The translations under genes were made by a program, and so were the position numbers. Shown here piece after piece: positions 3,144 to 35,035 of a stretch of 40,621 nucleotides of DNA. Source of the DNA: a phage. Where the stretch lies: the sequence record PX596819.2; one strand, 5' to 3'. How positions within the stretch are numbered: the first letter of the stretch is position 1; each line of letters opens with the position of its first letter. The notes below the pieces were generated by a model, which did not search any database, had not been told where the DNA came from, and worked only from the letters and a program-made list of their open reading frames with translations.

Positions 3144-3185
3144 CATAAAGGCCACTACACATAGTAATGACCTTGAGTCTAACAC
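3144..3185 (-). other. Conserved hairpin motif (copy 1 of 3), candidate RNase III processing site (R18.5-like position)
   Basis: Motif cat(a/g)aaggccac-N13-15-atgaccttgagtcta recurs three times; the transcript folds as an ~11 bp stem (AAGGUCAU.. / ..GUGGCCUU) with a 5 nt loop. Confidence 0.4.
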
Positions 3186-3449
3186 TTATTGAACTCCATA
3201 CCCTGTGTCATTATCTTCCGTAGCGGAGAGCACCTTATCGTACTCTGCGTTCAGGGCCTCCATATCAGCCAGCGTCTTCTCGTCCACAGACACCTTACTT
3301 AACACAAAGTTGTGACGAGCCAGTAGCTTCTCAATGGCGTTGTAAAGCTGAGGCGAACGCTTAGAGTCATCCCGCAGGTCTTGCAGCATGAGTCTAGCAC
3401 GTTCAGTATCTAGCATTAAGAGGAACTTCTCTAAGTCCATCTGCGTCAT
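3186..3449 (-). CDS. gp18: Terminase small subunit (DNA maturase A, gp18)
   Basis: 87 aa; size and position as T7 gp18 between the holin and Rz genes. Confidence 0.75.
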   Translation of the reverse strand: MTQMDLEKFLLMLDTERARLMLQDLRDDSKRSPQLYNAIEKLLARHNFVLSKVSVDEKTLADMEALNAEYDKVLSATEDNDTGYGVQ

Positions 3450-3640
3450 GTTTTACCACCTCCTTTAATCGTTTTGTAGACTAGCACACCAATCTGGACA
3501 ACGGTGTACGCGATAGCTGCAACGTAGAACCATTCGTTCAGTGTAAGTCCGAAGAAGAACCGACTGGCACCATCAGCCGCAGCGGTCCCGACGATAGGAG
3601 AGGCTTTAAGGACCTCATTCTTGAAGTCTAACTCAATCAT
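3446..3640 (-). CDS. gp17.5: Holin (gp17.5-like)
   Basis: 64 aa with a hydrophobic TM segment (WFYVAAIAYTVVQIGVLVY) and charged C-terminus; follows the tail fibre gene as in T7. Confidence 0.75.
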   Translation of the reverse strand: MIELDFKNEVLKASPIVGTAAADGASRFFFGLTLNEWFYVAAIAYTVVQIGVLVYKTIKGGGKT

Positions 3641-3799
3641 AAAACCTCCAGTTTAAAGCGGGTCGTCCGTTACCCAAAGTTGTTACCATACGTTGGTCAG
3701 CGTGTAGTTAGCCTCTACCTCCACAACCTTCGATGGATTTTGATGATGAAATTCCATTCTGATACCATCAACCGCTTCTAAATAACGGGCCATTATTAT

Positions 3800-5995
3800 T
3801 TATACGATATTGTTCCCCATCGGTACCATGCTCATCGTAGGCGCTACGGAGTAGGATACAATAAGAGAATCACCGGGGGCGAGCATAACAAAGCCAGATG
3901 TCATACCTGTCACAGTTTGTGACCCACCGCGATTGAATTGGATACTCGTCACTGTGCCTCCAGTTGTAAGCACATTCTGGTACTCGCCTGTAGTATTTGT
4001 GTAGGTGAACGGGGAAGCCGTAACCGTGATAGGTTGGCGCAATTTTGTCGGGTACACATAAGCATTAGCGTCCAAGTCAAAAACATTACGGAAGCTACTA
4101 TTCGTGCCTGAATCGTAAATGCCTCCGCTGCCAGTGTCAAAATAGTTAACAGTCAGGTTTTCGATGTTCGCGGCAGAACAACCAGACTGCATTTCGATAC
4201 GCTCATGTAAGCCACCTACAATTCTCGCCCGGCGAGATGAACTGAGCAGAACGATGCTTTTGCCTGTATAACAGTTCTCCAGTACCGTATCTTGCCCACC
4301 ATCCAGCAGGTCTGCTGTCCCGTTAGCCTCAAAACCCATACCTACGAACTTATTCTGGCGTGACCCGCCTGAGGTAGTTATACCGTAGGTTCCGTTAGCC
4401 TCAGAAGTTCCGCCTATGAAGGTATTCAGGTCAGTGTCATTCAGGCGAATACCTGTACCCCCAACGCCTTCCATGATGGTATTAATAAACAGGTTTGCTG
4501 TTGACTTCAGGTTTCTGGACGGAGAAGTGCCAAGTACAAGACCGTAGTAAGGCTTGTTAGTAACTGGTTGCTCATTGATGGAATATGTTATGTTCTCGAA
4601 TACACTGGCAACGGTCCATAATAAACTCATAACCTTACCTGTTGTTGGGCTGGCCTCCCTTAAATTGATATTACGCATAGTTAGGTGTGAAGAATTCTCT
4701 ACATATAGAATGTGCTGGGTATTCGCATGACCTTCTATACCAATGTTTTCCACCACAACGTCGTAAACAGCTTGCAAACCATATTCTGAACCGTCGATCT
4801 TAAAAGCCTTCTCACCGGATGTACTTTTAAGGATAGTGTTATTTTTACCGTCCCCGAAAATATGAACACCTTTAACAGCAAAGTTTGGACCAGTCGCATA
4901 CGCATAAATACCAGCAGGGATGTATCCGCGTCGCTTATCTGTCTGGGCCACTACCGCGTTCCTGAATGCTGCCAGCTGTGCACTATTGTCAGTCACACCA
5001 TCACCGACGGCACCGAACCACAAGGCATTAATAGGGCCATCAAAGTCTCTCACCCAGCAACCGCTACCTGAAGGGTCTGATTCTCCGGTACCAGCCAAGA
5101 AAGCTGAGATGGAACTATACGGTACCGATGGGCTTATGATAGTACCACCATTGTGCGACGTTTTTGGCATGGTCGGTACGAAAATAAACTCGCCACCACC
5201 AGTAGGTTTTCCACCTGTTACTAATATATAATCAGAAGACCATGATTTTAGTTTTACCCTTGAGGTATCCCTCCCATATAAGCCATAAAATCCAGAAACG
5301 GAATCTAATTCCCCTATTAATGAATATCCAAGTTTGCTAGCAAGATGACTACGCAATGATGCATCACCAACACTAACCCACGCACCTACTCCAATCCCAC
5401 CGGAAGATTCAGGAGTTGAACCAGTAGGAACGTTCTTTGGAAGCGTACCATCCCAGCGGTAATAATCACTATCCTCCTCCCATAGCAGTACCTCGTTCCA
5501 TGTTGTAATGTTGAAGCCTTTCTCGAAGGAGCGACGGGTAATATAGCCAATTTTACCAGATGCCTTGATACTCTCAGCGATTCGTCGTGCTTCGTCCTCG
5601 CTATCCTTAGCGTTGCCAGCAGAGCTACCAGCGGCATCGGCATATTCCTTCGCTAAGTCAACCGTTTGGTCTCGACCTTCTTCTGCAATATGGATAGCCT
5701 GAAGCTCTGAATTGGTCAGGTCACTAGCTGTCAACACTGAGCCATTCCTGAAGTCTACCACTAAGTCAGTTCCAGTCTGACGGTGAATACGAACGATGTC
5801 GAAACCTGATTGGTCAACCAACATCTCAATCATCGTTGGATTAAAGAATCGGTAATCTCGGCCAACTTCCAGTACACGGTTCATGGTAGGGTTAGAGCTA
5901 TTCACCAGCGTAACAACAACAAACGTTCTGGCTAGGTAGTCGAACTCAATCCTGTAATGAGTGTTTCCTGAAGGGAATTGTGTAATAGTGGACAT
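3800..5995 (-). CDS. gp17: Tail fibre / tail spike (gp17) with T7-like N-terminal anchor and a distinct C-terminal beta-helix-like domain
   Basis: N-terminal ~150 aa (EFDYLARTFVVVTL, VDFRNGSVL, HIAEEGRD) resemble the T7 gp17 tail-attachment domain; the remainder is Gly/Asn/Thr-rich with repeated short strands, typical of tailspike beta-helices. Confidence 0.85.
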   Translation of the reverse strand: MSTITQFPSGNTHYRIEFDYLARTFVVVTLVNSSNPTMNRVLEVGRDYRFFNPTMIEMLVDQSGFDIVRIHRQTGTDLVVDFRNGSVLTASDLTNSELQAIHIAEEGRDQTVDLAKEYADAAGSSAGNAKDSEDEARRIAESIKASGKIGYITRRSFEKGFNITTWNEVLLWEEDSDYYRWDGTLPKNVPTGSTPESSGGIGVGAWVSVGDASLRSHLASKLGYSLIGELDSVSGFYGLYGRDTSRVKLKSWSSDYILVTGGKPTGGGEFIFVPTMPKTSHNGGTIISPSVPYSSISAFLAGTGESDPSGSGCWVRDFDGPINALWFGAVGDGVTDNSAQLAAFRNAVVAQTDKRRGYIPAGIYAYATGPNFAVKGVHIFGDGKNNTILKSTSGEKAFKIDGSEYGLQAVYDVVVENIGIEGHANTQHILYVENSSHLTMRNINLREASPTTGKVMSLLWTVASVFENITYSINEQPVTNKPYYGLVLGTSPSRNLKSTANLFINTIMEGVGGTGIRLNDTDLNTFIGGTSEANGTYGITTSGGSRQNKFVGMGFEANGTADLLDGGQDTVLENCYTGKSIVLLSSSRRARIVGGLHERIEMQSGCSAANIENLTVNYFDTGSGGIYDSGTNSSFRNVFDLDANAYVYPTKLRQPITVTASPFTYTNTTGEYQNVLTTGGTVTSIQFNRGGSQTVTGMTSGFVMLAPGDSLIVSYSVAPTMSMVPMGNNIV

Positions 5996-6043
5996 TATGC
6001 CTCCTGTTATGAATTAAAATGGAGACCTATGGTAGCGCCTCCA

Positions 6044-6066
6044 GTTTCCTATAGTGATAGTTTAGT
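6044..6066 (-). promoter_or_regulatory. Phage RNAP promoter (phi17-like)
   Basis: Minus strand ACTAAACTATCACTATAGGAAACTGGAGG just upstream of gene 17, overlapping the gene 16 stop. Confidence 0.65.
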
Positions 6067-9000
6067 CCTTGATGTGAATGCCTTGTTCCTCAAACGTTCC
6101 AAGCAACAGCTTCTGGGTAATGGGGTCGTTCGGAACCAGTTCACGGAGCGTATTATACATCCCGGTCATGTAGTCACGCTCGTTGACACGAGTATCAGCC
6201 TTGAGGTAGCCAGCCAAGTTGTAAGCCGAAGCGCCAACGTTAGCAGCATATCCGAAAGCTGGAACCTGCTCCAAGAAGTTACCAACAACATTCATCACAG
6301 GGTCACTTGTAGCTGCACCATACGCGATGGCACGTTCAGGCTTCTCTGTAGGAGAACGAGGTAGGATAGACGAACGGAGCATCTTAGTGTCCTCATACCC
6401 AGCGATGCCACCCAGAATGTTAGCTACCCCAAGTGGGCCACCCAGATGTGAACTACGGGACAGAGACGCATAACCAATCATCGTCGGGTCCAGAGCTTGC
6501 TTAAGGTAATCACGGTCTCGACCATCCTGCATGGCATAAGCCTTGACGTGCGCCTGAGCCATGTAGTAGATACCAGCCAGGCCCATAGACATCACGGTCG
6601 ATAGTGCAGCATCAATCGCTCGGTTGTTCTTCGTGGCGTTATAGAAGGTACGCATGGTTCGCCCATTGATGGACTTGATTACGAAGTTCTTAAACTGAAG
6701 GACAGTCTTAGCGATAGGACCATAAGCCTTGGCGTCCATGTTGGACAGCTTATAAGGACGGAGTAACGTTTCGTCAGCGATGGTGTCACCCATACGCCAC
6801 AGGTCCATAGCCCTTGGGTCCTGACTGAACGCCTTCTTATCCTTGATGGTATACTTCCCGTCTGGACCACGAGTCACTGACTCACGGATTAGGGACTTAA
6901 TACCATTCCACTGCTCGTTAGAGATACCAGCGGTCTTCAGCCATCGGTCATCGAACTTACGCTTACTACCAGTCAGGCTATGCTCCACGATGTCAGACAG
7001 GAAGCCTTGACGTCCAGCGTCTAACAGGTAGTTTGTTGTACCGTTGAGGACTTTAGTTAACGGCGAGCGTACTGCAAGTTCACCAGTGTAATACTTGGCA
7101 GTCCCAAGAGCTGTAGCCGCCCCGCGACCTAGGTCGCTATAGGAGCGAAGACGGTCAATGACATCCTGTTTAGACGGGCGGATTGAGTCATCAAGTTCCT
7201 TACCGAAGAGAACATTGTGAAGGTCCTTAATCTCTGAGGCTCCGACCTTCTTGTTACGGAAGGCTAGGTCACGGAACATCGGGACTCCATGAAGCATTGC
7301 GCGAACGTTACCGCGAGCCAGCATACCGCCAATCTCCGTTAAGTTCTGAACACCCATGTAGGCATTCTTAGCGAAGAACGATAGGTCCGTCATTGTGCGC
7401 ATCACGGTAGCGAAGGCCGCATCGTCAGCACCATCACGTCGAGCACGTCCAGTGAGAATCTTCAAGGTGTCACGCAAGGTAGATACCTCACCTTTCAACT
7501 TTCCGTCATCACCAGCTTTGTTCATCATGGTCTCAACTAAGTCCTTCATTTCCTTCGTGGTCTTTCCTGTACCAGCCATGATAGCAATGTCACCATTAAT
7601 TCGACGGTTGTAGGCCGGGACAATCTTGTCCATGTCCCACTCGCGAAGACTATTGACGCTGAACTGCTTACCATTTGGCAAGGTGATTTCCATGTCGTTA
7701 TCGAACAGGTTGCGAGCCTCAAGGAAGTTATTGTTCTCCAGACCAACCAGACCGTTGATGTTTTCTTCCATTACGGATGAACGCTCAAACTGCTCTGTAT
7801 GGGAGATACCATAAGCCTTATCATTAGCATACTTCTCTACCATATCCATAGTCACCTCTGGTGCTGCTTGAGATGCGTTGCCAGATGTAGTTTCACCAGA
7901 TGTAGTGTCCTGACCATCTACAGAAGACTTCTGCCCTTTGGCAGCTGCCACAGCCGATTCAGCTTCAGTTGTTGCTTTGGTGATTCTGTCTCGAACCTTA
8001 TCAGCCTGTCCTTTCATGTAGTCGAGACGCTCGGTGTTAATACGGACGTGAGACTTCTGTGTCTCAATCATCTGCTTCCGACTCTCAATCTTAACAGGAA
8101 TGGTCTTGCTATTAGGCTTAGCAGCTAGCTTTTCTTCCAACTCCTTCAGCTTAGCTTCATGAGAATCCAGTCGGTCCTTGGAGTTCTGGAGTTTCTTTTC
8201 ACGGTCTGCAACTCGCTTCTCAGCGTTGGTAAGGACATCTTTGAGTTCCGCTACCTTATCAATTGCCTGTGTAGCTGCATCGTCCAGTTTCATCTGGTCA
8301 CGAGCTGCTTCTACAGAAGAACGATGATTTGATGCAGTACCTACAGTCTTACCTGCCGCTGGTTGAGATGCCCGTAACTGCTCTGCTAACATCTCGTCCA
8401 CTCGCGCCTTGACTTCAGGTCTTGACGCATAGCTTGTCAACCATGACTTCTTGATGGCCTCCTGTAATGCCTCTGGGCTTCCAAGCTCATTGATATAAAG
8501 CTGCTTCATCTGAGAACTGTAGACTACAGGAACGTAGGTTCCCTTGAATCTACTACCCGGAAAGATAGACTTAGCGTCTGTACGACCAAACATCGCTGGG
8601 TTCTCCATCATTTCACGCTTTGCGTCAAACTGGTTCTTCAGCATGTCATAGACTTTCAGTTCCCCCGGAGTAAGTTCAGACTTCAGGTTCCCGCTACCAT
8701 CCTCAATAGCCAAAGCTACGCGCTTATAAACATCCTCACGCAGAGCTGAGTTATCTCGCCAGAACGCTGTCTGGAAGTACGGGTCCTTGAGAGCCTCAGT
8801 AACCGCATCGTCGATGTCGTTGTAGAACCGATGGTCCACAGCACGAAGTCTCTCGAATACGTCTGACGCAGTGGTCCCGATTTTACCTGAGGCCCCTGAC
8901 TGCATACCAGTCGGTGAACGCACTAGGTCAGCAGCGACTCCACGAATCTCAGGGTTCTCGGACCGAAGCAGCTTCAGGCCAATCTCAGTCAGACCACCAA

Positions 9001-10468
9001 GGTTCACACCAGCAGCGGCACGTTCAGGCTCAATCACTTCGTCAAATACTTGGCGTGTCTTAGGGTTCAGAGGGTTCTCACCAATCAGGATTGAACCATC
9101 TTCAAGTCGTACACTACCCGGCTCATTCGGAACGTCAGCGAACTTAACGCCTTGATGGCTAAAGGTCTGCTCACCATCCTGAATAGGTAGACGAGACAGG
9201 TCCTGACCATCAGTGTTGCGAGCTGTCTCACGAGCTTCCAGACGTGTAGCTGGGCCAGCGAACTCGTTAGTGTTGCGACCCAAGGCTCTGCCTAGACCAT
9301 CAGCGATAGCAGTCATACCTCCACCGAAGAGAGCACCACCAAGGATAGCCTCAGCCACATGAGCATCACCACCAGCCACTGATGTACGGGCCATCTCTGA
9401 CACACCAGCAAGTGCTCCAGATTGAGCAGCCACTGTGAACATCTTGTTGACCAGCTTACCACCTTTGCCAACCTGTCCAGCGATAGGAACGTAGGTCAGC
9501 GGGTCTACACCAGCACCAATCACACCAGCGGCTAACTGAGCACCAACCCCGGCCTTGGCCTTCTCTTGGTCCAACTTCTGGTTCTCAAGCGCCAAGTTAA
9601 TAAGCTCGGTCAGGTTCTGAGGGGAGCCACCAGTAATGACCCCGTAATACTGAGGAAGAACTCCAGCGTTACGAATCTGGTCCAGCTCCTCACGAGACCA
9701 CTTATGGTTGTTCCATCGTGTCGGGTTAAACACATCGCCAATGACATCAAGTGAGTCCTCGGTCTGACCAGCGCGGATAGCCACCCCGACCATAGAGTTC
9801 TTCACTTCAGCTTCTGTAGCCGCGCCGAAACCGAACCACGTAGAGCGATCCTCTCGTTCCTGCATGGTCTCGCCAGTAGATTTATAGAACATCTCACCGA
9901 ACGATTCGTTAGGAGCTTCAGGTGATTGACCCTCAATGTTTAGACCAGCAGCGGTCGGAAGGTTCTCGCCCAGAGCTACTTTAGGTTTCGCCTTTAATCC
10001 TTCCGTGAGTGCGTCAAATACGTTAGCGCTTACTGGTGGAGTCTTTGGGCTAATGCCATTGAGTGCTCGTGCGACTCCCTTCCGATAGACTTCAGGGTCG
10101 TACCTGGAGCCTGTCTCGTGGTAGCCGATAGCTTGAGCCAGAGAAGACAGGGTGTCAGGGTCCGATAGGTCGAGACTCTGGGTAGCTGGAATACCAGTCG
10201 CAGCAACCACTGAGTTAATATAAGACTGAGTGTCGTTCTCGTTAGGAGGAGCCCATCGGTTGATAATCTTCTCGATGGAGTCATAACCTTGGCGACCGTA
10301 GCTTTGAAGGTTTTTCGCTAATGCTCTTACTCCTGATTCAGGACTATCGAAGATAACGAATGCACCATCATCGCCCACAGCACCTTCCCATTGGTCCTTA
10401 CTTACCCGGAGGTTACCCAGATTATTATTGCGAATACCACGAGTCGCCATTATGTTACTCCTTACCAA
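6062..10468 (-). CDS. gp16: Internal virion protein D (gp16) with N-terminal lytic transglycosylase-like domain
   Basis: 1468 aa; N-terminus (GIRNNNLGNLR.., SPESGVRALAKNL) resembles the T7 gp16 transglycosylase domain; long coiled-coil segment mid-protein; position after gp15. Confidence 0.9.
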   Translation of the reverse strand: MVRSNIMATRGIRNNNLGNLRVSKDQWEGAVGDDGAFVIFDSPESGVRALAKNLQSYGRQGYDSIEKIINRWAPPNENDTQSYINSVVAATGIPATQSLDLSDPDTLSSLAQAIGYHETGSRYDPEVYRKGVARALNGISPKTPPVSANVFDALTEGLKAKPKVALGENLPTAAGLNIEGQSPEAPNESFGEMFYKSTGETMQEREDRSTWFGFGAATEAEVKNSMVGVAIRAGQTEDSLDVIGDVFNPTRWNNHKWSREELDQIRNAGVLPQYYGVITGGSPQNLTELINLALENQKLDQEKAKAGVGAQLAAGVIGAGVDPLTYVPIAGQVGKGGKLVNKMFTVAAQSGALAGVSEMARTSVAGGDAHVAEAILGGALFGGGMTAIADGLGRALGRNTNEFAGPATRLEARETARNTDGQDLSRLPIQDGEQTFSHQGVKFADVPNEPGSVRLEDGSILIGENPLNPKTRQVFDEVIEPERAAAGVNLGGLTEIGLKLLRSENPEIRGVAADLVRSPTGMQSGASGKIGTTASDVFERLRAVDHRFYNDIDDAVTEALKDPYFQTAFWRDNSALREDVYKRVALAIEDGSGNLKSELTPGELKVYDMLKNQFDAKREMMENPAMFGRTDAKSIFPGSRFKGTYVPVVYSSQMKQLYINELGSPEALQEAIKKSWLTSYASRPEVKARVDEMLAEQLRASQPAAGKTVGTASNHRSSVEAARDQMKLDDAATQAIDKVAELKDVLTNAEKRVADREKKLQNSKDRLDSHEAKLKELEEKLAAKPNSKTIPVKIESRKQMIETQKSHVRINTERLDYMKGQADKVRDRITKATTEAESAVAAAKGQKSSVDGQDTTSGETTSGNASQAAPEVTMDMVEKYANDKAYGISHTEQFERSSVMEENINGLVGLENNNFLEARNLFDNDMEITLPNGKQFSVNSLREWDMDKIVPAYNRRINGDIAIMAGTGKTTKEMKDLVETMMNKAGDDGKLKGEVSTLRDTLKILTGRARRDGADDAAFATVMRTMTDLSFFAKNAYMGVQNLTEIGGMLARGNVRAMLHGVPMFRDLAFRNKKVGASEIKDLHNVLFGKELDDSIRPSKQDVIDRLRSYSDLGRGAATALGTAKYYTGELAVRSPLTKVLNGTTNYLLDAGRQGFLSDIVEHSLTGSKRKFDDRWLKTAGISNEQWNGIKSLIRESVTRGPDGKYTIKDKKAFSQDPRAMDLWRMGDTIADETLLRPYKLSNMDAKAYGPIAKTVLQFKNFVIKSINGRTMRTFYNATKNNRAIDAALSTVMSMGLAGIYYMAQAHVKAYAMQDGRDRDYLKQALDPTMIGYASLSRSSHLGGPLGVANILGGIAGYEDTKMLRSSILPRSPTEKPERAIAYGAATSDPVMNVVGNFLEQVPAFGYAANVGASAYNLAGYLKADTRVNERDYMTGMYNTLRELVPNDPITQKLLLGTFEEQGIHIKD

Positions 10469-12737: not shown

Positions 12738-12748
12738 TAGTCCTCCTC

Positions 12749-13336
12749 TTAGCTATGACCTGTAGGTGTGCCTTTAGCAGCACTAATTGGTGCAGCACCA
12801 CCAGAGCTTGATGCCCCAGATATTGATTTACCAGCGGCGTACCCCTGCATCCCGGCGCTTGCAACATTAAGTGCATGAGCCAGTGGGCTGGTCTTGATGA
12901 TTCTACCTTGACCTCGGATAGCAGACTTGGTGTTCTCAATGTTGGCGATACGGTTCCCGAAGATAGCCGCATAGTCGCGGTTGTAACTTTCGGTAATCCC
13001 TACTCTCTCCTTGACTGTATCTCCTTCGACCTGACGTTCAATCCTGTCCATAGAGTTACCTTCCAGACCGGACTCAGCCACCGCAGCTCGTACCATACCC
13101 TGATTGCGTACACCGTTGAGCGTGGTCTCTGTAAGTTCAGCCATCTGCTGCTCCTTCAGGTCTCGCTCCTGCATCTTCAGGTTGGCGTCAGAGTAGTTCA
13201 TCTGCTTAACCATTTCCTGAGCCTGTCGGTTCTGAGCGTCAATTGCTGCTCCTTCAGCCTTGGCCTGTTGTGATGCGGACATAGTGGCCCCGGCTACAGA
13301 CATGACTCCTAGACCGATACTTATGGGTTCACACAT
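12749..13336 (-). CDS. gp14: Internal virion protein B (gp14)
   Basis: 195 aa vs 196 in T7; synteny. Confidence 0.8.
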   Translation of the reverse strand: MCEPISIGLGVMSVAGATMSASQQAKAEGAAIDAQNRQAQEMVKQMNYSDANLKMQERDLKEQQMAELTETTLNGVRNQGMVRAAVAESGLEGNSMDRIERQVEGDTVKERVGITESYNRDYAAIFGNRIANIENTKSAIRGQGRIIKTSPLAHALNVASAGMQGYAAGKSISGASSSGGAAPISAAKGTPTGHS

Positions 13337-13791
13337 ACGTCCTCCTTAGAGATAGTGAATAGTTGAAAACGCTCACCAGTTACTGGGCTTACAGTCCAAT
13401 CATCATGGAATTTAGCGCCAAGCAACTTCAAGAATTTAATGTGAGACTTATTGCCTGACCACACGTAGTTCCAGATGGTACCGTATTGGTCTAACATTAA
13501 GTCCCTGTACTCAGAGATACGCTTTATGAACTCTCGCTTCTCTTTAGGTCTCAGCTTGTTGACCAGACCTGAAGTCAAGAACCATACGTTATCCCCTTGG
13601 TTTCCACCATAGGCAAACACTTCTCCTACACCGTTCGTTAAAACCACAGATGACGGAGATAGGTGCTTAAGCAGTCTTTCAGAGAGACCCACGGTTGACC
13701 CGTAGTTTGCTTTGCATTCATTAACATCATCTGCTGAAAGATGCCACAGAAAGTAATGGACATCTGGTTCCGTAGCCTTGCGAATATACAT
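13321..13791 (-). CDS. gp13: Internal virion protein A (gp13-like)
   Basis: 156 aa at the gene 13 position, directly downstream of a phage promoter. Confidence 0.65.
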   Translation of the reverse strand: MYIRKATEPDVHYFLWHLSADDVNECKANYGSTVGLSERLLKHLSPSSVVLTNGVGEVFAYGGNQGDNVWFLTSGLVNKLRPKEKREFIKRISEYRDLMLDQYGTIWNYVWSGNKSHIKFLKLLGAKFHDDWTVSPVTGERFQLFTISKEDVCVNP

Positions 13792-13820
13792 AAAGTCTCC
13801 TTATAACCTTAAGGGCCTAT

Positions 13821-13843
13821 AGTCCCTATAGTGATAGTTAAGG
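13821..13843 (-). promoter_or_regulatory. Phage RNAP promoter (phi13-like)
   Basis: Minus strand CCTTAACTATCACTATAGGGACTATAGG upstream of gene 13. Confidence 0.65.
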
Positions 13844-13867
13844 TAAATCTATAGGCCCTTCAATAAG

Positions 13868-16225: not shown

Positions 16226-16234
16226 AGTCCCTCC

Positions 16235-17028: not shown

Positions 17029-17040
17029 AGGCCCTCCTTA

Positions 17041-18402: not shown

Positions 18403-18505
18403 ATGATAATTCTCCTATTCAATTGAAAGATAAAGTTTATTACTTACTGTACGCCCAATCCGTATGGACTGAAGTAATATGGGAAACCTTGAGTCTTTCT
18501 CTTGG

Positions 18506-18528
18506 TCTCCCTATAGTGATAGTTTAGT
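18506..18528 (-). promoter_or_regulatory. Phage RNAP promoter (phi10-like), ACTAAACTATCACTATAGGGAGA
   Basis: Identical to the T7 promoter from -8 to +6 (TCACTATAGGGAGA) and different at -12 to -9; upstream of the capsid gene. Confidence 0.7.
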
Positions 18529-21091: not shown

Positions 21092-21101
21092 TCGTCACCT
21101 C

Positions 21102-21765: not shown

Positions 21766-21769
21766 TGTC

Positions 21770-21994: not shown

Positions 21995-22008
21995 AGTCCC
22001 TCCTACAG

Positions 22009-22281: not shown

Positions 22282-22342
22282 CTTGAATCTCCTCTTTAAG
22301 TTAAGACTAAAGTCTATCTTATAGTCATATCTTAGGTCCTAA

Positions 22343-22365
22343 AGTCCCTATAGTGATAGTTTAGT
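22343..22365 (-). promoter_or_regulatory. Phage RNAP promoter (phi6.5-like)
   Basis: Consensus match (minus strand ACTAAACTATCACTATAGGGACTTTAGG). Confidence 0.65.
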
Positions 22366-22414
22366 GTTTCACCTATGGATGACTGTTGGATTGATAGGAT
22401 ATGACTATCGGTTA

Positions 22415-23973: not shown

Positions 23974-23975
23974 TA

Positions 23976-26744: not shown

Positions 26745-26765
26745 GGTTAATCCTCCGTTTAGTCT

Positions 26766-26806
26766 AATCATAAAGGCCACTCGATGTGAATGACCTTGAG
26801 TCTAGA
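26766..26806 (-). other. Conserved hairpin motif (copy 2 of 3), candidate RNase III site (R4.7-like position)
   Basis: Same motif as at 3144 and 34998; lies between genes 4 and 5. Confidence 0.4.
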
Positions 26807-26807
26807 C

Positions 26808-26936
26808 CTAGAAGTCTGTACGCAAGAAGTGGTACATGAACTTACGGTTAGCCTTCTTCCATGCCTTAGAATCGAACCTATGGTCTCCCAGAATGTTGGA
26901 CAGGCAGGTTGCCTCATCGCTCCACCATTTGTACAT
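26808..26936 (-). CDS. Possible small ORF (about 42 aa) between primase-helicase and DNA polymerase
   Basis: ATG-initiated ORF MYKWWSDEATCLSNILGDHRF.. filling the intergenic gap; no clear RBS. Weak. Confidence 0.2.
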   Translation of the reverse strand: MYKWWSDEATCLSNILGDHRFDSKAWKKANRKFMYHFLRTDF

Positions 26937-26983
26937 GAACCGATGGTAGCGAGCTTTAAGTTTTCTTAGCAATGTACTCCTCC

Positions 26984-28687
<1,704 letters not shown>

Positions 28688-28734
28688 TCACTCCTTAATC
28701 ACAAATGCGAACAAAGGGACAGGACTCATGGTCC

Positions 28735-28757
28735 CATCCCTAAAGTGATAGTTTAGG
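28735..28757 (-). promoter_or_regulatory. Phage RNAP promoter variant (phi4-like) with CACTTTAGGG in place of CACTATAGGG
   Basis: Minus strand CCTAAACTATCACTTTAGGGATGGGAC upstream of gene 4; A-to-T change at -2. Confidence 0.5.
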
Positions 28758-28968
28758 CTTTGAAGAACTTAGACAACTGGTCAGCTTTGGTGTCAGCTTG
28801 ACGCGCCTTCATTCCAGCTTCCAGTGAAGCGATGGTCAGCTTGTCAGCCAGAGCAGCAGCATCAGCCGCACCATCAGCAGTCTTCTTTTCTACCTTTCGT
28901 TCCAGTACCGCAGCACGACGATAACCACGCACCACCAGACGACCAAGAAATTCTATGAGTTTAATCAT
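28753..28968 (-). CDS. Hypothetical small protein (gene 3.7/3.8 position)
   Basis: 71 aa ORF between lysozyme and primase-helicase; Ala/Lys-rich. Confidence 0.45.
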   Translation of the reverse strand: MIKLIEFLGRLVVRGYRRAAVLERKVEKKTADGAADAAALADKLTIASLEAGMKARQADTKADQLSKFFKA

Positions 28969-28992
28969 TGAGTTATTCTCCTTTAGAGTTTA

Positions 28993-29463
28993 TTAACCAC
29001 GGTCGGAAGTGACCAGTTCATTGGTAGACAGCCAGCGTTGCAAGTCGAAACTTGGGCACGCCTTAGGTGCTACGTCATGGTGTGCTTTGATTTCTGCCTG
29101 AGGATACAGGACCTTCAGGTCAGCCAGCTTGCTGCGCAGGGAGTTCATCTGGGCTGGAGTGAAGTTAGCTTCAAACTGACCCTTATCGTTGATTCCACCT
29201 ACAAGGCAGACGCCTACGGACTTGGAGTTCCAGTCCTTAACGTGTGACCCTACGACATTGACCGGGCGACCCTCTTCCACAGTACCATCTCGCTTGATGA
29301 TAAAGTGGTAGCCTGCGTCCAGCCATCCCTGCTGCTTGTGCCACATACGGATGGTATCTACCCCGATGTCCATCTCTGGCTTGGTAGCCGAACAGTGAAC
29401 GAAGATAGCGTCAGTTGACTTGCGTGGCATGAATTGTACTTTACTTCCCATTATTATTTCCAC
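28993..29463 (-). CDS. gp3.5: Lysozyme (N-acetylmuramoyl-L-alanine amidase; gp3.5-like, also the likely RNAP inhibitor)
   Basis: 156 aa; DAIFVHCSATKP, GYHFIIKRDGTVEEGR, GVCLVGGI, APKACPSFD, ending NELVTSDRG, all resembling T7 lysozyme. Confidence 0.93.
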   Translation of the reverse strand: MEIIMGSKVQFMPRKSTDAIFVHCSATKPEMDIGVDTIRMWHKQQGWLDAGYHFIIKRDGTVEEGRPVNVVGSHVKDWNSKSVGVCLVGGINDKGQFEANFTPAQMNSLRSKLADLKVLYPQAEIKAHHDVAPKACPSFDLQRWLSTNELVTSDRG

Positions 29464-29495
29464 CTCTTGTGGTTCCTGATTCGACTTATGGTTGT

Positions 29496-29834
29496 CTAAC
29501 TTACTGAGTATTTTTCAGCCATAAACTTAAGGGTCTCGCTTGAGGTGCGAATATCCCTAACGTCCTCTTCAGTTAGTTTTAAATTAAATGTCCTACATAC
29601 TGAGCAGTCCATCATGTTTTCTTCCTGAGTCCCCAGCTCAAGGTGCTCAATGTTTACGCATGCACGGTTATCACACTTGTGTCTTACGACAAGACCTCCC
29701 GGTATAGCACCATTGGTCTCTATCCAAGCGGCTCGATGAGCACCCATAGATTGGCCACGGAATTTACGTCTACCATAGCCATTCTTATTGCGACTATTAG
29801 TCCACTCGATGCAGTCACTTTCCATTGTAAACAA
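29496..29834 (-). CDS. HNH endonuclease (free-standing)
   Basis: CIEW..NGYGRR..AHRAAWIETNGAIPGGLVVRHKCDNRACVNIEHLELGT is a typical phage HNH pattern; C-terminal LTEEDVRDIR segment. Confidence 0.8.
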   Translation of the reverse strand: MFTMESDCIEWTNSRNKNGYGRRKFRGQSMGAHRAAWIETNGAIPGGLVVRHKCDNRACVNIEHLELGTQEENMMDCSVCRTFNLKLTEEDVRDIRTSSETLKFMAEKYSVS

Positions 29835-30288
29835 CTATCTCTACGACCACCAGATTCAGATGTGACTGGAAGCGCTGTGAGTCAGTCGTGTGCATCTGGA
29901 GACGCTTGTGGTTGAAGACGTGTGATTTGCTAATCTTCACGTAAACTTCGTCAGGCTTGCCGTGGACGATGAACGTCTGACCCACACCAATCTTGTCGAT
30001 TGTCAGGACTTCTCGTTTCACTGTCACAGGAGGTACACTCGAAGCTGGCAGGACCTGAGTTTTCTTCTCACCAGTGCGTTTCCCAGCATCAATAAACTTC
30101 AGGCGCTTACCATACATGGCAGTAATCCAACATTTTCCATCACGAGATATATCCCACAGACCTCCATCAGATGGGTTAGTTGTTTTGCATATATGGCGAA
30201 CGAAGACTTCTTGCCCCTCTTCGAAACCACAGCACACGCTTGTGCTCAAGTCGGACAGGTCAACGATTGTTGCTCTACGCGTCATCAC
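29815..30288 (-). CDS. Hypothetical protein (157 aa), lineage-specific insert between endonuclease I and the HNH/lysozyme genes
   Basis: Start abuts the gp3 stop; 20 nt overlap with the downstream HNH ORF; no motif I recognise. Confidence 0.45.
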   Translation of the reverse strand: MMTRRATIVDLSDLSTSVCCGFEEGQEVFVRHICKTTNPSDGGLWDISRDGKCWITAMYGKRLKFIDAGKRTGEKKTQVLPASSVPPVTVKREVLTIDKIGVGQTFIVHGKPDEVYVKISKSHVFNHKRLQMHTTDSQRFQSHLNLVVVEIVVYNGK

Positions 30289-30737
30289 TTAACTCCTTTC
30301 TTCTTGGGAATGAGTATACCTGAAGGCAGATGTACAGTCGCCTCTCGGAGCCACTCAACCGGGATGAACTTATCGGCATACTTAAAGCCGTTCTTTTCGC
30401 ACCATGCGCCATACGTGGTTGGAGACCCTTTGTATAACTTGGAGCGGGAACTTGAGAACACGAACCGAATGTCTAACTCAGGGTGCTGTTCTTTAATCAA
30501 TAAGTGCTTCTTACGGTCTTCCACTGCGAAGATTCCCTTGGTCTCCACAATGATGCCATTTGGTAGCACAAAGTCTGGACAATAGGTATGAAGGGATTGA
30601 GGGATTGTGTACGCTATTTTATACATCTCGTACTCAGCCTTAACCCCGTTCTTCTCCAGCCACTCTTGGTTTTTTGCTTCCAGTCCAGACCGATAGATTC
30701 CTACCGAGTGTCCCCTACTCATGCTACGTGTCGCCAT
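30285..30737 (-). CDS. gp3: Endonuclease I (Holliday junction resolvase, gp3)
   Basis: 150 aa; HTYCPDFVLPNGIIVETKG, DRKKHLLIKEQHPELDIRFVFSSSRSKLYKGSPTTYG resemble T7 gp3. Confidence 0.93.
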   Translation of the reverse strand: MATRSMSRGHSVGIYRSGLEAKNQEWLEKNGVKAEYEMYKIAYTIPQSLHTYCPDFVLPNGIIVETKGIFAVEDRKKHLLIKEQHPELDIRFVFSSSRSKLYKGSPTTYGAWCEKNGFKYADKFIPVEWLREATVHLPSGILIPKKKGVK

Positions 30738-31168
30738 GTTTCTCTCCTTAGTATCTTACCTATTGTTGGCTGAGACACTCCGTAGATTGTAGCGAGTTGT
30801 CGCTGAGTAAGGCTCGAAGACCTAATTTCCTTGACTTTAGTGTCAGTAAGTTTGGACATACCGCACTTCTCTCCCGGAACATGAGGAGGGTTTACACCGC
30901 GCCCCTTGTTACGCATGTCCTGAAGGTTATCCAATTGGGTCCCTACAGTAAGATGCTCAGGGTTACAACACAGCGGAGTATCACAGGTGTGTAACAGAAC
31001 GCCATTAGGTTCTTCACCTGTAATCAGCTCGTAGGCTACGCGATGTGCAAGCATGGTTTTTCCATTGTGCCTAATCTGACCGTAGCCTTTGTTGTTAACG
31101 CAGCCAGTGAAAAGCCAGCAGCTACCTGAAACCACAAGTCGCTGCTTAAGGCTTTCTACTGTAGCCAT
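30719..31168 (-). CDS. HNH endonuclease with C-terminal HTH (free-standing)
   Basis: CWLFTG..NKGYGQI..AHRVAYELITGEEPNGVLLHTCDTPLCCNPEHL; C-terminal LTQRQLATIYGVSQPTIGKI helix-turn-helix. Confidence 0.8.
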   Translation of the reverse strand: MATVESLKQRLVVSGSCWLFTGCVNNKGYGQIRHNGKTMLAHRVAYELITGEEPNGVLLHTCDTPLCCNPEHLTVGTQLDNLQDMRNKGRGVNPPHVPGEKCGMSKLTDTKVKEIRSSSLTQRQLATIYGVSQPTIGKILRRETWRHVA

Positions 31169-31866
31169 TAGAAGTCGTAATCGCCACCAGAGCTGGAGTC
31201 GTCACCACCTTCGGAACCATCGTCACCGAAGTCATCGTCACCGAAGTCACCATCGGTTGACGCTTTGTAACCAGTGCCTAGGTCTTCATCATCACCCCAT
31301 CCACCATCGCCACCAGCACCATCACCTTTCCATTCCTTCAGTTCTACCAGAAGGCAGGACTCAAGCTGGAGCTTAACGCTTGCACCAGTCGCAGCATTCC
31401 ACTTGAACGGCAGGACTTTAAACTTGACCTTCAGCTTAGACCCAGCACCAATATTCGGGACGTCACGGATGAGTTTAGCATCGGTGTCGTAGAACCGTAA
31501 TACGATAGGCTCGGACTTGCCGTCTTTCAGGTAAGACGCAAAGCATTTAAACTTCATGGTAACAGTACCGTCACCATTCTCAATCCACGGCATGTCGCCT
31601 TCTCGTGGTTCAATAGGCTTCTTGCCACGCTGAACCTGAGGTGGGTTCTTCTCGTGGTCTGCGAGTGCTTTCGCATACGCATCGTCGTGAATCTTCTGTA
31701 AGACATCAATCATCTTACGGACCTTCGGGTTGCTCAGGTCGAATGTCAGGTTAACCTTATGCTCACCACGCTCGTTAAACTTGGTGTCTGCTTTGTTCAG
31801 CCATGCGTAAGGCTCAACGATACCAGCTACCGGAGTGGTGAAAGTCTTCAGTTGCTCTTTAGCCAT
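31168..31866 (-). CDS. gp2.5: Single-stranded DNA-binding protein (gp2.5)
   Basis: 232 aa, the same length as T7 gp2.5; acidic C-terminal tail ending in F (..GGDYDF). Confidence 0.93.
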   Translation of the reverse strand: MAKEQLKTFTTPVAGIVEPYAWLNKADTKFNERGEHKVNLTFDLSNPKVRKMIDVLQKIHDDAYAKALADHEKNPPQVQRGKKPIEPREGDMPWIENGDGTVTMKFKCFASYLKDGKSEPIVLRFYDTDAKLIRDVPNIGAGSKLKVKFKVLPFKWNAATGASVKLQLESCLLVELKEWKGDGAGGDGGWGDDEDLGTGYKASTDGDFGDDDFGDDGSEGGDDSSSGGDYDF

Positions 31867-31906
31867 TGGTGTAAATCTCCTAATTTAAAAGTTACGAACT
31901 GGACGT

Positions 31907-31929
31907 CTGTCCTACAGTGATAGTTTAGG
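31907..31929 (-). promoter_or_regulatory. Phage RNAP promoter variant (phi2.5-like) with CACTGTAGG
   Basis: Minus strand CCTAAACTATCACTGTAGGACAGACG upstream of gene 2.5. Confidence 0.5.
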
Positions 31930-32161
31930 TCTCAGGACGAATCCGTCCGACCACAAACCCAGCGTCCTCATACTCTTGGGACTTCAGGGTAGCCTCTTCA
32001 AGAGACTTTGCGTACACCGGAACCTCGAATGACTGAACGCGACCCTCAAGCTCAACGATGTATTTCTTTTCTACGTCAGTCATAGACCGCGCTCCTTCCA
32101 TTGGTTGTATAACGTAATGTAGTCCGGGTTGAGAGTCTTCTCGTACATCTCCCGGCACCAC
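31925..32161 (-). CDS. gp2: Host RNA polymerase inhibitor (Gp2-like)
   Basis: C-terminal part [14 protein letters not shown]...[13 protein letters not shown] resembles T7 Gp2 (SFEVPIYAETLDEA...AGFEVTRVRP); the true start is probably an internal Met. Confidence 0.6.
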
Positions 32162-32170
32162 TCACTCGGT

Positions 32171-32434
32171 TTAAGCATATCGGTTCACCATTACACAGTC
32201 GTCAGAATGGTCATACTCCTCTACCCTAATAATCATACTAGGAGTCTTCATATAAGCAAACGGTAGGAGGTCATAGTCATAATACTCACTGTGTCCTAAT
32301 GAGAACGCTAACATACCCTTACGCAGCGCCTTGTATGATCGGTAAAAACTGAGCGCTCTACGCTTCACCCCTACAGCTTTAAGTTCTTCATGCGTCATAA
32401 CACTTGTCCTTATGTTTCTCGTAAAGTTCACCAT
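32171..32434 (-). CDS. Hypothetical protein (gene 1.8 position)
   Basis: 87 aa ORF between the 1.7-like gene and gene 2; synteny only. Confidence 0.4.
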   Translation of the reverse strand: MVNFTRNIRTSVMTHEELKAVGVKRRALSFYRSYKALRKGMLAFSLGHSEYYDYDLLPFAYMKTPSMIIRVEEYDHSDDCVMVNRYA

Positions 32435-32714
32435 AGAACTCAGCTTTCGCCATGTCCTTCTCCATAGTAGCTAGCTCTGACTTCTTGCCAGCCCGGAGTC
32501 GATACTTCAGGACGTTCCCCATGCAGAACCCACGAAACTCGCTGACAGTCATAGACCGAGCGATAATCTCAATGGACTCAACACCATCAAAGACCTGATA
32601 GTGGGACGGCTTGCGTACACCGTCATCAGCTACAGCAACTGGATGAGGTGTTGAGACGCCGCATCGATAGGCATCATAACGTTCATAGCACGTCTTGCTT
32701 TCGTAGTGTGACAT
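32388..32714 (-). CDS. gp1.7-like protein (DUF3310-type; putative nucleotide kinase)
   Basis: 108 aa with a GNVLKYRLRAGKK segment that I associate with the DUF3310 / T7 gp1.7 family; position between 1.6 and 2. Family assignment is uncertain. Confidence 0.35.
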   Translation of the reverse strand: MSHYESKTCYERYDAYRCGVSTPHPVAVADDGVRKPSHYQVFDGVESIEIIARSMTVSEFRGFCMGNVLKYRLRAGKKSELATMEKDMAKAEFYGELYEKHKDKCYDA

Positions 32715-32968
32715 TAGAATACCTCCTTCACGAACTCAACGAACAGGCGAACGCGAGGCCACTTAGTGTAGACCACAGGTACGTTGGTCTCACGCTTCTG
32801 GCGAGCCTCTTCGGCTTTGCTCGGAGTAATCAGAGCGAATACTGTAGGTGATAACTTAATGGCCTTCCCGAAGTAGCCCAGCTTCTCGTTGCGCTTAATG
32901 CAAGCGAACGGGTTGTTGGAAAGGTGGAAGGTACTGGAATAACGGTTGAACATTAAGTTCTTAGACAT
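32714..32968 (-). CDS. Hypothetical protein (gene 1.6 position)
   Basis: 84 aa, directly downstream of a phage promoter. Confidence 0.45.
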   Translation of the reverse strand: MSKNLMFNRYSSTFHLSNNPFACIKRNEKLGYFGKAIKLSPTVFALITPSKAEEARQKRETNVPVVYTKWPRVRLFVEFVKEVF

Positions 32969-32992
32969 AGCGTCTCCTTAGGTTGTTGGTTG

Positions 32993-33015
32993 TAGTCCTA
33001 TAGTGATAGCTTAGG
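32993..33015 (-). promoter_or_regulatory. Phage RNAP promoter (phi1.6-like)
   Basis: Minus strand CCCTAAGCTATCACTATAGGACTACAACC; G at -12. Confidence 0.55.
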
Positions 33016-33033
33016 GTCTATATGGTGGCCCAG

Positions 33034-33070
33034 ACGCAAAGAAACCCAGCAGTCAGAAGACCACTGGGTT
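33034..33070 (-). terminator. Intrinsic terminator, candidate early terminator (TE-like) for host RNAP
   Basis: Minus strand ACCCAGUGGUC-UUCU-GACUGCUGGGU stem-loop followed by UUCUUUG; lies after the ligase/HNH block and just before the phi1.6 promoter. Confidence 0.5.
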
Positions 33071-33074
33071 GACG

Positions 33075-33536
33075 TTATAATGAATCCCTTAAGGCTACTG
33101 CCTCGGCTATGGTATCGAACGTACCGTATGACTTACGCTTTATCCGCAGTTGCCAGCGACCAGTTGATTTCTGGTATTGAACGTATTTCTCTCCAGATTG
33201 GCAGTGACTACGGGTTGGAACGTTAGTTAGGTTCACCGCCTGAGTCACACACCTGAGGTTCTCAATCCTGTTATCCGAAGGGTCCCGGTTGATATGGTCA
33301 ATCACCATCCCTTCTGGTATAGGACCGTGGGTTAGTTCCCAGACTACTCGGTGGGCCAGCAGTTGGCCCTTTGTCGTACTTAGAATCCAGTACCCATCCT
33401 TTCGTCTATAACCAAGATGTCTACCGTTTAGGTTTGAGACTCCAGAGGGAGCCGCCCTGTCTGCTTTAAATCTTGACCGTAGGGTCGTCCTCAGTTCCAC
33501 GCCACTGGTCGAACGAGGGATGCCGTAGTAAGCCAC
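33075..33536 (-). CDS. HNH endonuclease with AP2-like C-terminal domain (free-standing)
   Basis: AHRVVWELTHGPIPEGMVIDHINRDPSDNRIENLRCVT; C-terminus GRWQLRIKRKSYGTFDTIAEA. The start overlaps the ligase 3' end by about 70 nt, so the true start may be downstream. Confidence 0.75.
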   Translation of the reverse strand: MAYYGIPRSTSGVELRTTLRSRFKADRAAPSGVSNLNGRHLGYRRKDGYWILSTTKGQLLAHRVVWELTHGPIPEGMVIDHINRDPSDNRIENLRCVTQAVNLTNVPTRSHCQSGEKYVQYQKSTGRWQLRIKRKSYGTFDTIAEAVALRDSL

Positions 33537-34515
33537 TTGGTGTCTCCTCCATGTAGGTAATCTGGCAGGCCCAGCCTTTATAATAATCAGGGTCTGACTT
33601 TACGTTCTCTGTGAACTCGGACATTAGGGCGCGACTAATATTAGTTGCGGAGACCTCCATCCCGTTCTCAAGCATAACGTCAAAGCCTATTACCAGTCCT
33701 TCGTTGGTAAGACCTTCTGTTCCCCATATAGGCCGTACAACGTGACCGTCTGCCTCTTCGCTTGGTTTCATCTTGAACATACCTGACTTCTTTCCACGCT
33801 TCCAGCGTCCCAGTGGGTCTTTAACCACCAGACCCTCATGGCCCTCTTCTCTCTTCTTCTCATACAAGTCAGTAAGCTCGTCTAAGCTAAACACTGTATG
33901 ACTCTCAGATAATACCCAGTCGATTTCCGGGAAGTATTTCTGGAGGAGAGGGACGATAGCTTCGGCCTTCAGGCGCGTGACGCTATGGATAGGACCTTCA
34001 GCTTTCTGGTCGAGGATGACGTTGAGGTCTATGATACCGTAGACGATTACCTTGATATGTTCCGGCTTAAGGTTGAACAGCTCCTTGCGGGACTTGCGGT
34101 CTGTTGGCGTCCCACCCACTGCGAACTCGTGGTTCTTGTGGTCTCGGTACTTCGTGCGGATAAGACCTGAGGATGTGTTGAAGTCTACACCCTTGACCAT
34201 CACCTCGCCATCAATCATCAGGCCAGAGACCTCGTGTCCTGCTTGCTTCAGGAACCAGCGCCAGTCATCTGCTCGTGTTACTACACCTTCGTGCTGACGT
34301 GAGGCTGGGTTGCTTAAGTGACTCAATGCTGGAAGCTCTTTAGACTCACGGCTCAACCATTGAGTCTCACCAGTAGGGAAGACCGGAATATTCAACCGGA
34401 CACCATCGTACTTCACTTCAGCTTCCAGCGACCCAGCAGCTTCCAAAGCCTTCTTAACGCCAGACTCAGAGTAATCTACAGCGCGGTGCGGGTTAGTTTT
34501 GATAGTCGTTGTCAT
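33466..34515 (-). CDS. gp1.3: ATP-dependent DNA ligase (gp1.3)
   Basis: 349 aa; IKTNP start, adenylation motif VKYDGVR, GHEGLVVKDP, GWACQITYMEETP, all resembling T7 ligase. Confidence 0.93.
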   Translation of the reverse strand: MTTTIKTNPHRAVDYSESGVKKALEAAGSLEAEVKYDGVRLNIPVFPTGETQWLSRESKELPALSHLSNPASRQHEGVVTRADDWRWFLKQAGHEVSGLMIDGEVMVKGVDFNTSSGLIRTKYRDHKNHEFAVGGTPTDRKSRKELFNLKPEHIKVIVYGIIDLNVILDQKAEGPIHSVTRLKAEAIVPLLQKYFPEIDWVLSESHTVFSLDELTDLYEKKREEGHEGLVVKDPLGRWKRGKKSGMFKMKPSEEADGHVVRPIWGTEGLTNEGLVIGFDVMLENGMEVSATNISRALMSEFTENVKSDPDYYKGWACQITYMEETPSGLLRHPSFDQWRGTEDDPTVKI

Positions 34516-34777
34516 TATGATTTCTCCATGTGTCTAGTTGGTCAGCGAGACCGTTAAGGAAGTCGGTTGCAGTGTTGTACAGTACGTCTTCATCGTGGTG
34601 TGCGAATGTCTCAAGCGCGAAGATGTTACCAGCTCGGTCCTCAACCCTGAGTTTCATGCACTCTTGTCGAGACGCAGGGTCTTGAAACTCCTGAGAAATG
34701 ACAGCTAAGTCTAACTGATAGAGCCTGTTACACGCTGCTTTGAGAGCGTTGAGGTTGCCACTATAAAGTCGGCCCAT
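34493..34777 (-). CDS. gp1.2: gp1.2-like protein (dGTPase inhibitor homolog)
   Basis: Starts MGRLYSGNLNALKAACNRLYQLDLAVI and contains HHDEDVLYN, closely resembling T7 gp1.2. Confidence 0.75.
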   Translation of the reverse strand: MGRLYSGNLNALKAACNRLYQLDLAVISQEFQDPASRQECMKLRVEDRAGNIFALETFAHHDEDVLYNTATDFLNGLADQLDTWRNHNDNDYQN

Positions 34778-34781
34778 AGCG

Positions 34782-35009
34782 TTATGCTCCTACTAAGTAT
34801 TTTTCTCGGTTTACCAGAGAGTCTTTACCTTCAGCGTTACGGAAAGCACCCTTGACACCACCGCCGCGCTTGGTCTTGTTCAGCTTGCGGCCCTTCGGAA
34901 TGTAATATTCAGTCTTCTGACGTTCACGGATGCGCTCGAAGTTGATAGTGTTCTGATACATGTGGTTAAATCTCCAGTAGTTTACGTTAGGATTAATCAT
35001 GAAGGCCAC
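34782..35009 (-). CDS. gp1.1: gp1.1-like small basic protein
   Basis: Contains KGRKLNKTKR as in T7 gp1.1; the track ORF starts at GTG and the true start is probably an internal ATG. Confidence 0.5.
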   Translation of the reverse strand: MAFMINPNVNYWRFNHMYQNTINFERIRERQKTEYYIPKGRKLNKTKRGGGVKGAFRNAEGKDSLVNREKYLVGA

Positions 35010-35035
35010 GACTTTGAGTCATGACCTTGAGTCTA
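34998..35035 (-). other. Conserved hairpin motif (copy 3 of 3) at the 5' end of the phi1.1 transcript, candidate RNase III site (R1.1-like)
   Basis: Minus strand UAGACUCAAGGUCAUGACUCAAAGUCGUGGCCUUCAUG: 11 bp stem with two G-U pairs and a 5 nt loop, immediately downstream of the promoter. Confidence 0.45.

Follow-up and report, generated by a model that had tools for sequence, protein, structure and literature searches.

The closest described counterparts of the elements reported here are the ribonuclease III (RNase III) processing sites of bacteriophages T7 and T3. Escherichia coli RNase III recognizes about two turns of helix, possibly by way of coaxial stacking. Internal loops confine it to a single phosphodiester, and the 3' stem-loop that remains blocks 3'-5' exonucleases; about 11 base pairs (bp) between the cut and the loop suffice, and the loop sequence is not critical (PMC1540722). 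In T7, the strong cleavage sites are R3.8, R4.7, R6.5 and R18.5 (PMC5592923). This report concerns sequence record PX596819.2, a 40,621-nucleotide (nt) stretch of phage DNA analysed as a whole (hereafter the window), in which six hairpins on the transcribed strand make up one family. Judged from their sequence, these hairpins are, at a probability of roughly 90%, RNase III processing signals of polycistronic transcripts that are homologous to R0.3, R0.5, R1.1, R4.7 and R18.5 of T7 and T3. The homology covers sequence, structure and map position.

A megablast search places the window in Kayfunavirus (K1F-like, T7-related), with 92-95% identity to several Escherichia phages. The minus strand carries every long open reading frame (ORF), along with all 11 matches to the phage promoter TAAACTATCACTATAGG, a number to be compared with 0.07 expected by chance. 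The window is thus a complete K1F-like genome in reverse complement, and its transcripts are read off the minus strand.

The six sites, followed by the promoter adjoining one of them, are given below. Predicted cuts are placed by homology with T7 sites and given in minus-strand coordinates, and scores are those of R2, a covariance model trained on seven T7 sites alone and searched with filters off.

Site A, 40025..40091, minus strand: two-tier hairpin about 17 nt 5' of the first early gene (ATG 40012), at the T7/T3 R0.3 position; predicted cut 40041^40040; R2 score 30.8 bits, E = 7.8e-5; fold z = -3.8.
Site B, 39295..39353, minus strand: hairpin after a 49-amino-acid ORF, which has its TGA (39347-39345) within the 5' arm, and ahead of the ORF at ATG 39271, at the T7 R0.5 position; predicted cut 39311^39310; 50.0 bits, E = 1.4e-9.
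Site C, 38839..38900, minus strand: hairpin directly after the TAG (38902-38900) of a 123-amino-acid ORF and before the ORF at 38825, an extra early-region site; predicted cut 38855^38854; 32.2 bits, E = 3.6e-5.
Site D, 34983..35044, minus strand: third copy of the original prediction, starting at +1 of a phage promoter, at the T7/T3 R1.1 position; predicted cut 34999^34998, about 41 nt from the inferred start G35039; 47.2 bits, E = 6.9e-9; fold z = -5.3, a stability reached by 0 of 200 shuffles.
Site E, 26754..26813, minus strand: second copy of the original prediction, directly 5' of the DNA polymerase gene (Shine-Dalgarno sequence, SD, GGAGG; ATG 26753), at the T3/T7 R4.7 position; predicted cut 26770^26769; 48.7 bits, E = 2.9e-9.
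Site F, 3129..3190, minus strand: first copy of the original prediction, between the genes for the terminase small subunit (gene 18) and an Rz-like spanin (18.5), at the R18.5 position; predicted cut 3145^3144; 54.8 bits, E = 9.1e-11.
Phage RNA polymerase promoter, 35038..35054, minus strand: phi1.1 equivalent, one of the 11 matches to TAAACTATCACTATAGG; its transcript opens with the 5' arm of site D.

All six members carry one core, (A)CUCAAGGUC...GUGGCCUUUAUGAUU. The original prediction had described a three-copy family, and three exact copies of AAGGCCAC-N-ATGACCTTGAGTCTA do occur on the plus strand (3148-3181, 26773-26804 and 35002-35035, and nowhere else), against none in 100 dinucleotide-shuffled trials. 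It is the count that has to be revised, since a relaxed pattern and covariance-model searches bring the family to six: the relaxed pattern adds two minus-strand copies in the early region (39344-39315 and 38891-38859), and a sixth, more diverged copy lies at ~40075-40035. The complete half CATRAAGGCCAC begins at 3144, 26769 and 34998, and the minus-strand form of the motif is TAGACTCAAGGTCAT-loop-GTGGCCTTYATGRTTA. The spacers from ...CCAC to ATGA... are 11, 9 and 11 nt rather than the 13-15 nt first given, and the ends placed at 3185 and at 26766/26806 were off by a few bases.

When folded with about 25 nt of flank, all six sites adopt, as the minimum free energy (MFE) structure or the centroid, a two-tier architecture composed of a lower stem of 7-10 bp, an asymmetric internal loop of about 4/5 nt, an upper stem of 10-12 bp and an apical loop of 3-7 nt. 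The 5' side of the internal loop reads ACUC or ACUA, and the 3' side UAUGA, CAUGA or ACUGA. Fold z-scores across the six sites range from -1.9 to -5.3. Site B has a lower stem of 10 bp, an internal loop of 4/5 nt and an upper stem of 10 bp. On the minus-strand transcript, the copy at 3165 has an upper stem of 11 bp with a 5-nt loop, in line with the original description; the copy at 35019 has 12 bp and a 3-nt loop, and the copy at 26789 about 10 bp and a 5-nt loop, its MFE pairing differing slightly from the centroid. The hairpins had also been called simpler than T7 RNase III substrates. With flanks included, each shows the two-tier T7 structure, and the impression of simplicity arose because the upper stem alone was seen and the lower helix missed.

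The sites are consistently placed with respect to genes. All six lie on the sense strand of polycistronic transcripts, between ORFs or at gene ends, with the next start codon ~8 to ~50 nt away. Stop codons of upstream genes fall inside or just before the 5' arm (3186-3188, 39345-39347 and 38900-38902, minus strand), the first of these being the TAG of gene 18 (3188-3186), which lies within site F; the same arrangement is seen in T3 R18.5 and T7 R0.5. Sites B and C have tandem stops (UGAUAG) in two frames. The assignment of the three original copies to R18.5, R4.7 and R1.1 is borne out, as the flanking genes and the phi1.1-type promoter agree with the T7/T3 map.

Comparison with T7 extends to individual bases. 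The T7 sites R0.5, R1.1, R4.7, R18.5, R1 and R1.3 carry the same core as the window sites, (A)CUCAAGGUC-loop-GUGGCCUUUAUGAUU, with the same succession of lower stem, 4/5-nt internal loop and upper stem, and the same sense-strand intergenic placement and map positions (R0.3, R0.5, R1.1, R4.7 and R18.5). T7 R1.1 reads ACTCAAGGTCATTC-GCAA-GAGTGGCCTTTAT^GATTG, and the window copy at 26789 reads ACTCAAGGTCATTC-ACATC-GAGTGGCCTTTATGATTA. The upper stem of site E, AAGGUCAUUC/GAGUGGCCUU, and both strands of its internal loop are identical to those of T7 R1.1, the reference substrate, so that its upper-stem pairs agree throughout (10/10); sites D and F share the first 8. Sites B, C and A have upper stems of the CAGG/CCUG type, as in T7 R1; the 3' loop of site B, ...GGCCUGACUGAUU, is similar to that of T7 R1, and site A aligns with the R0.3 and R1 sites of T7 and T3. 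Compatibility with the proximal and distal boxes of E. coli RNase III, which calls for the absence of antideterminant pairs, was considered at the level of whole-stem identity. An alignment (A1) of 13 sequences, the six from the window and seven T7 sites, has the consensus AGTGnTAnACTCAAGGTCATT...AGTGGCCTTnATGATTAnCACT. The leader at site D runs 41 nt from its phi1.1-type promoter, against about 40 nt in T7, counted from the phi1.1A start (5848) to the cut.

The T7 sites alone suffice to retrieve the window family. In the window, R2 picks out precisely the six elements, with scores between 54.8 and 30.8 bits and E-values between 9e-11 and 8e-5; the best match after these (E = 3) is one of the six read in antisense. 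It also finds six matches in K1F itself and recovers T7 R6.5, which lies outside its training set. On T3 (AJ318471), it recovers eight of the ten curated 'RNase III recognition site' stem-loops (R0.3, R0.5, R1, R1.1, R1.3, R4.7, R6.5 and R18.5), with matching coordinates and zero extra matches. This retrieval by a T7-only model and the base-for-base alignment with T7 and T3 sites likewise contradict the notion of simpler hairpins. In gene context, too, the window resembles T3, where R4.7 immediately precedes gene 5, R18.5 and the end of gene 18 overlap, and R6.5 lies around phi6.5.

The window departs from its relatives in several respects. Its apical loops are ACAUC, CUAUG and CAA, compared with GCAA in T7 R1.1. 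It has no detected equivalent of R1 (before gene 1) or R1.3 (before the ligase gene), has the extra early site C, which is without a named T7/T3 counterpart, and shows a strongly diverged counterpart of R6.5. T3, of the genus Teetrevirus, uses another promoter sequence and possesses R1, R1.3 and R13, for which no equivalents were detected in the window. Other E. coli RNase III substrates, such as the 30S precursor stems of the rRNA operons, the lambda N-leader and sib, and the rnc leader, present about two turns of double-stranded RNA to the same host enzyme. They are mostly long, near-perfect helices cut on both strands and are not known to share the sequence signature of the T7-group family. 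A scan of the whole window against Rfam matched 0 of 4227 models at the gathering score, a result that reflects library coverage and not novelty.

Related phages preserve both helices through compensatory substitutions. In ten genomes, the model finds 60 matches, 57 of them distinct and included in a covariation alignment. Standard pairs occupy 90.7% of its cells, compared with 26-46% when the 3' partners are slid; double-sided changes occur in 15 of 19 pairs (164 cells), and all ten lower-helix pairs covary. A scan of IMG/VR with the pattern ACTCAAGGTC-N10-24-TGGCCTT returned at least 120 stretches, nearly all on contigs of 38-41 kb. Among the matches listed, the model finds 141 sites (111 distinct), in which 90.5% of cells are paired and double changes occur in 16 of 19 pairs (326 cells). 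Over both alignments, slid-partner controls give 26-48% pairing, against ~90% for the true partners.

Conservation is not confined to the helices. Among the best-conserved columns are those of the internal loop, where conservation is 60-97% for the 5'-side bases and 75-97% for all but the first of the five 3'-side bases; that first base is variable (49-59%). Taken together, the unpaired internal-loop bases and two U-G wobble pairs show ~75-100% conservation over a set of more than 150 distinct sites from dozens of phages. The structure is strand-specific, because the conserved U-G pairs become A-C mismatches on the other strand; with the covariance model, the score drops from 64.2 bits on the sense strand to 13.6 bits on the antisense strand. 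Strand-specific pairing and the sense orientation of the copies uphold the original view that the hairpins act on the transcript.

Several points weigh against identifying the hairpins as RNase III sites. The kinase gp0.7 stimulates RNase III in T7; in the window, tblastn with T7 gp0.7, T7 Ocr, Dev2 gp0.5 and CR8 0.7 detected no gp0.7 kinase or Ocr homologue. Fitting to the model biases alignments A3 and A5 towards pairing, and the pattern used on IMG/VR preset part of the upper stem, though not the lower helix. Sites A and C have lower R2 scores, and site C has one mismatched lower-stem pair. The T7 sequences were extracted around ten RNase III cut positions attributed to Dunn & Studier 1983; these coordinates were cross-checked by sequence only, because the T7 records NC_001604 and V01146 did not return RNase III sites among their features. 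Cleavage of the window hairpins, and the exact cut positions, are predicted by homology. Finally, E. coli strains without RNase III still support T7 growth (PMC6938266), so the sites may be dispensable for growth.

Other explanations account for parts of this pattern. Stable upper stems would shield a 3' end, and the hairpins might therefore be passive 3' stabilizers or exonuclease barriers that RNase III never cuts, the ends arising from another nuclease or from termination. A passive barrier, however, needs neither a covarying lower helix nor conserved internal-loop bases, both of which the sites show, and their sequences match proven RNase III substrates, making this reading very unlikely. 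Stabilization of 3' ends had originally been offered as an alternative to processing, whereas it is the known and documented result of a single RNase III cut at internal-loop substrates (PMC1540722). Since the single cut leaves that very hairpin, stabilization belongs to the RNase III mechanism and is no rival to it. It is extremely unlikely that the hairpins serve to terminate or pause transcription by the host or phage RNA polymerase. They do resemble terminators in having a hairpin followed by UUUAU, and MZ726794.1 has a 'terminator' feature at the homologue of site D, but a terminator scan detects none of the six and just three U follow the stem. Moreover, the sequence 3' of the U run pairs and covaries with the 5' flank, which is not required of a terminator, and essential genes lie directly downstream, such as the DNA polymerase gene after site E. 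Intrinsic terminators, taken as a G+C-rich stem with at least five U, share with the sites a stable hairpin and a few U; they differ in that U tract, which the sites lack, and in the conserved lower helix that spans the sites. The tails read UUUAUGAUU, UUCAUGAUU, UGACUGAUU or UCAAAGAUU, and the terminator reading was rejected.

The conserved bases could also be read by a protein. Unpaired loop bases and U-G wobbles are conserved beyond the needs of pairing, E. coli RNase III binds certain motifs without cutting them (PMC1540722), and the helix of site E ends a few nt 5' of the gene 5 SD, all of which would suit binding sites, for a phage factor or for non-cleaving RNase III, that control translation of the next gene. 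The known uncut motif is nevertheless a bulge-helix-bulge, which is not seen here, and start-codon distances that range from ~8 to ~50 nt imply no shared operator geometry. This reading is disfavoured and seems highly improbable, since T7 sites that are cleaved have the same sequences in the conserved loop and in the stem next to it. Near-identical segments of 15-16 bp recur in the genome and across many phages at module boundaries, as expected of a DNA-level element such as a recombination linker between T7-like modules, and the annotation of the T3 primary origin near phi1.05/phi1.1 might suggest part of an origin near phi1.1. The chance of either is close to negligible: compensatory changes keep RNA pairing, G-U pairs are valid on one strand only and every copy is in sense orientation, while recombination, which could be a side effect, leaves the structure unexplained. 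There is a slim chance that a second, undescribed constraint acts on the family, exerted by a loop-reading phage or host factor or by 15-16-bp recombination linkers that shuffle T7-like modules. This is suggested because conservation of the loop (ACUC / UAUGA) and of the wobbles exceeds the usual weak sequence preference of RNase III.

Under the favoured reading as RNase III processing signals, the two coaxial helices of ~10 bp, split by the internal loop (5' ACUC, 3' UAUGA), would form a quasi-continuous helix of about two turns that is bound by host RNase III. Because of the internal loop, the enzyme would cut only once, on the 3' side (...CCUUUAU^GAUU...). The upper hairpin would then stay with the upstream mRNA as a 3' end shielded from 3'-5' exonucleases, and the downstream mRNA would start from a few to ~50 nt before the next ribosome-binding site. 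In this way, early read-through transcripts made by the host polymerase and late ones made by the phage polymerase may be converted into discrete, stable mRNAs. A sigma-70-like promoter lies at 40246-40217, upstream of site A.

Beyond the six-member family, the window contains two candidate sites of divergent form.

Candidate R6.5-like site, 22317..22412, minus strand: long hairpin between genes 6 and 6.5; its lower stem of ~11 bp lies around the promoter at 22347-22363.
Candidate R3.8-type site, 28713..28740, minus strand: hairpin of 10 bp located at +1 of the promoter that precedes gene 4 (28739-28755), with UUUGUUCGCAUU next to it on the 3' side; predicted cut 28713^28712.

The first of these is a weak model match (11 bits) with a fold z-score of -3.8, and compensatory changes preserve its lower stem in K1F, Dev2, EcL30g and CR8. 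A promoter enclosed by a hairpin is the arrangement of R6.5 in both T7 and T3, the T3 site being annotated around phi6.5, and the hairpin is probably a diverged counterpart of these sites. The second candidate is unlike the six-member family in shape. T7 R3.8 has the identical 3' flank, CCCTTTGTTCGCATT, and the annotated T3 R3.8 stem-loop aligns with the candidate; the transcript from the gene 4 promoter opens with the hairpin and continues with CCCUUUGUUCGCAUU, a flank identical in T7 R3.8. On sequence grounds, the element at 28713-28755 is likely an R3.8-type site.

A search for an R1 equivalent before gene 1 yielded only a promoter followed by the half-motif GGACTCAAGGTC, which has no stable fold (z = +0.8), and this candidate was rejected. 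As the 5' half of the RNase III motif without its 3' partner, GGACTCAAGGTC may be a decayed R1 site. The promoter in front of it is of phage type and lies immediately 5' of the phage RNA polymerase gene (window 38090-38120, minus strand); T7 has none at that place, and one is predicted in CR8. No R1.3 equivalent was found in the window. R13-type sites were sought by folding all 11 promoter leaders, of which only the phi3.8-like, phi1.1-like and capsid-gene leaders are structured. At the capsid-gene promoter (window 18470-18511, minus strand), the transcript begins GGGAGACC...GGUUUCCC with a fold z-score of -4.8, and this leader presumably resembles the 5' stem-loop of the T7 phi10 leader.

The early end of the genome shows further features. 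The first early gene (39488-40012, minus strand) encodes a protein of 174 amino acids assigned to phrog_11084 and is named 'ocr' or 'antirestriction' in K1F records; its product has no similarity to T7 Ocr or gp0.7. By eye, the N-terminus GKGAFTKCY has the look of a kinase glycine loop. The gene was considered as a gp0.7-like kinase and rejected, as the product has no Pfam match and BLASTP comparisons with T7 gp0.7 and Dev2 gp0.5 gave nothing. At the genome left end (window 40500-40621, minus strand) there are short direct repeats, cctacagtctcactaa and related sequences, which resemble repeats annotated in the related phage CR8 close to its terminal repeat (acctacagtcaac, three times).

The K1F records AM084414 and DQ111067 have no RNase III features annotated, the literature searched contained no paper on RNase III in K1F or Kayfunavirus, and the Kvp1 and AP5 genome papers do not mention the enzyme. 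In MZ726794.1, a 99%-identical relative, 'terminator' and 'promoter' features (6208-6323) are annotated at the counterpart of the site D region, and what is labelled 'terminator' there is probably a mis-annotated RNase III hairpin. When ORFs are called mechanically, the DNA polymerase gene and the small gene that follows site D open at GTG codons (26780 and 35009) that lie inside the hairpins (GUGGCC). Translation probably begins instead at ATG 26753 and ATG 34964, both of which have an SD in front of them, and gene callers could over-extend both genes.

The six elements are ordinary orthologues of the T7-group RNase III sites, a textbook feature, and they imply no biology beyond that of T7 and T3. 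Their value lies mainly in annotation, as recognizing the sites settles where mRNAs begin and end and which start codons are probable. They also offer six to eight precise predicted cleavage positions, of use in transcriptome studies or in the engineering of K1F-type therapeutic phages.

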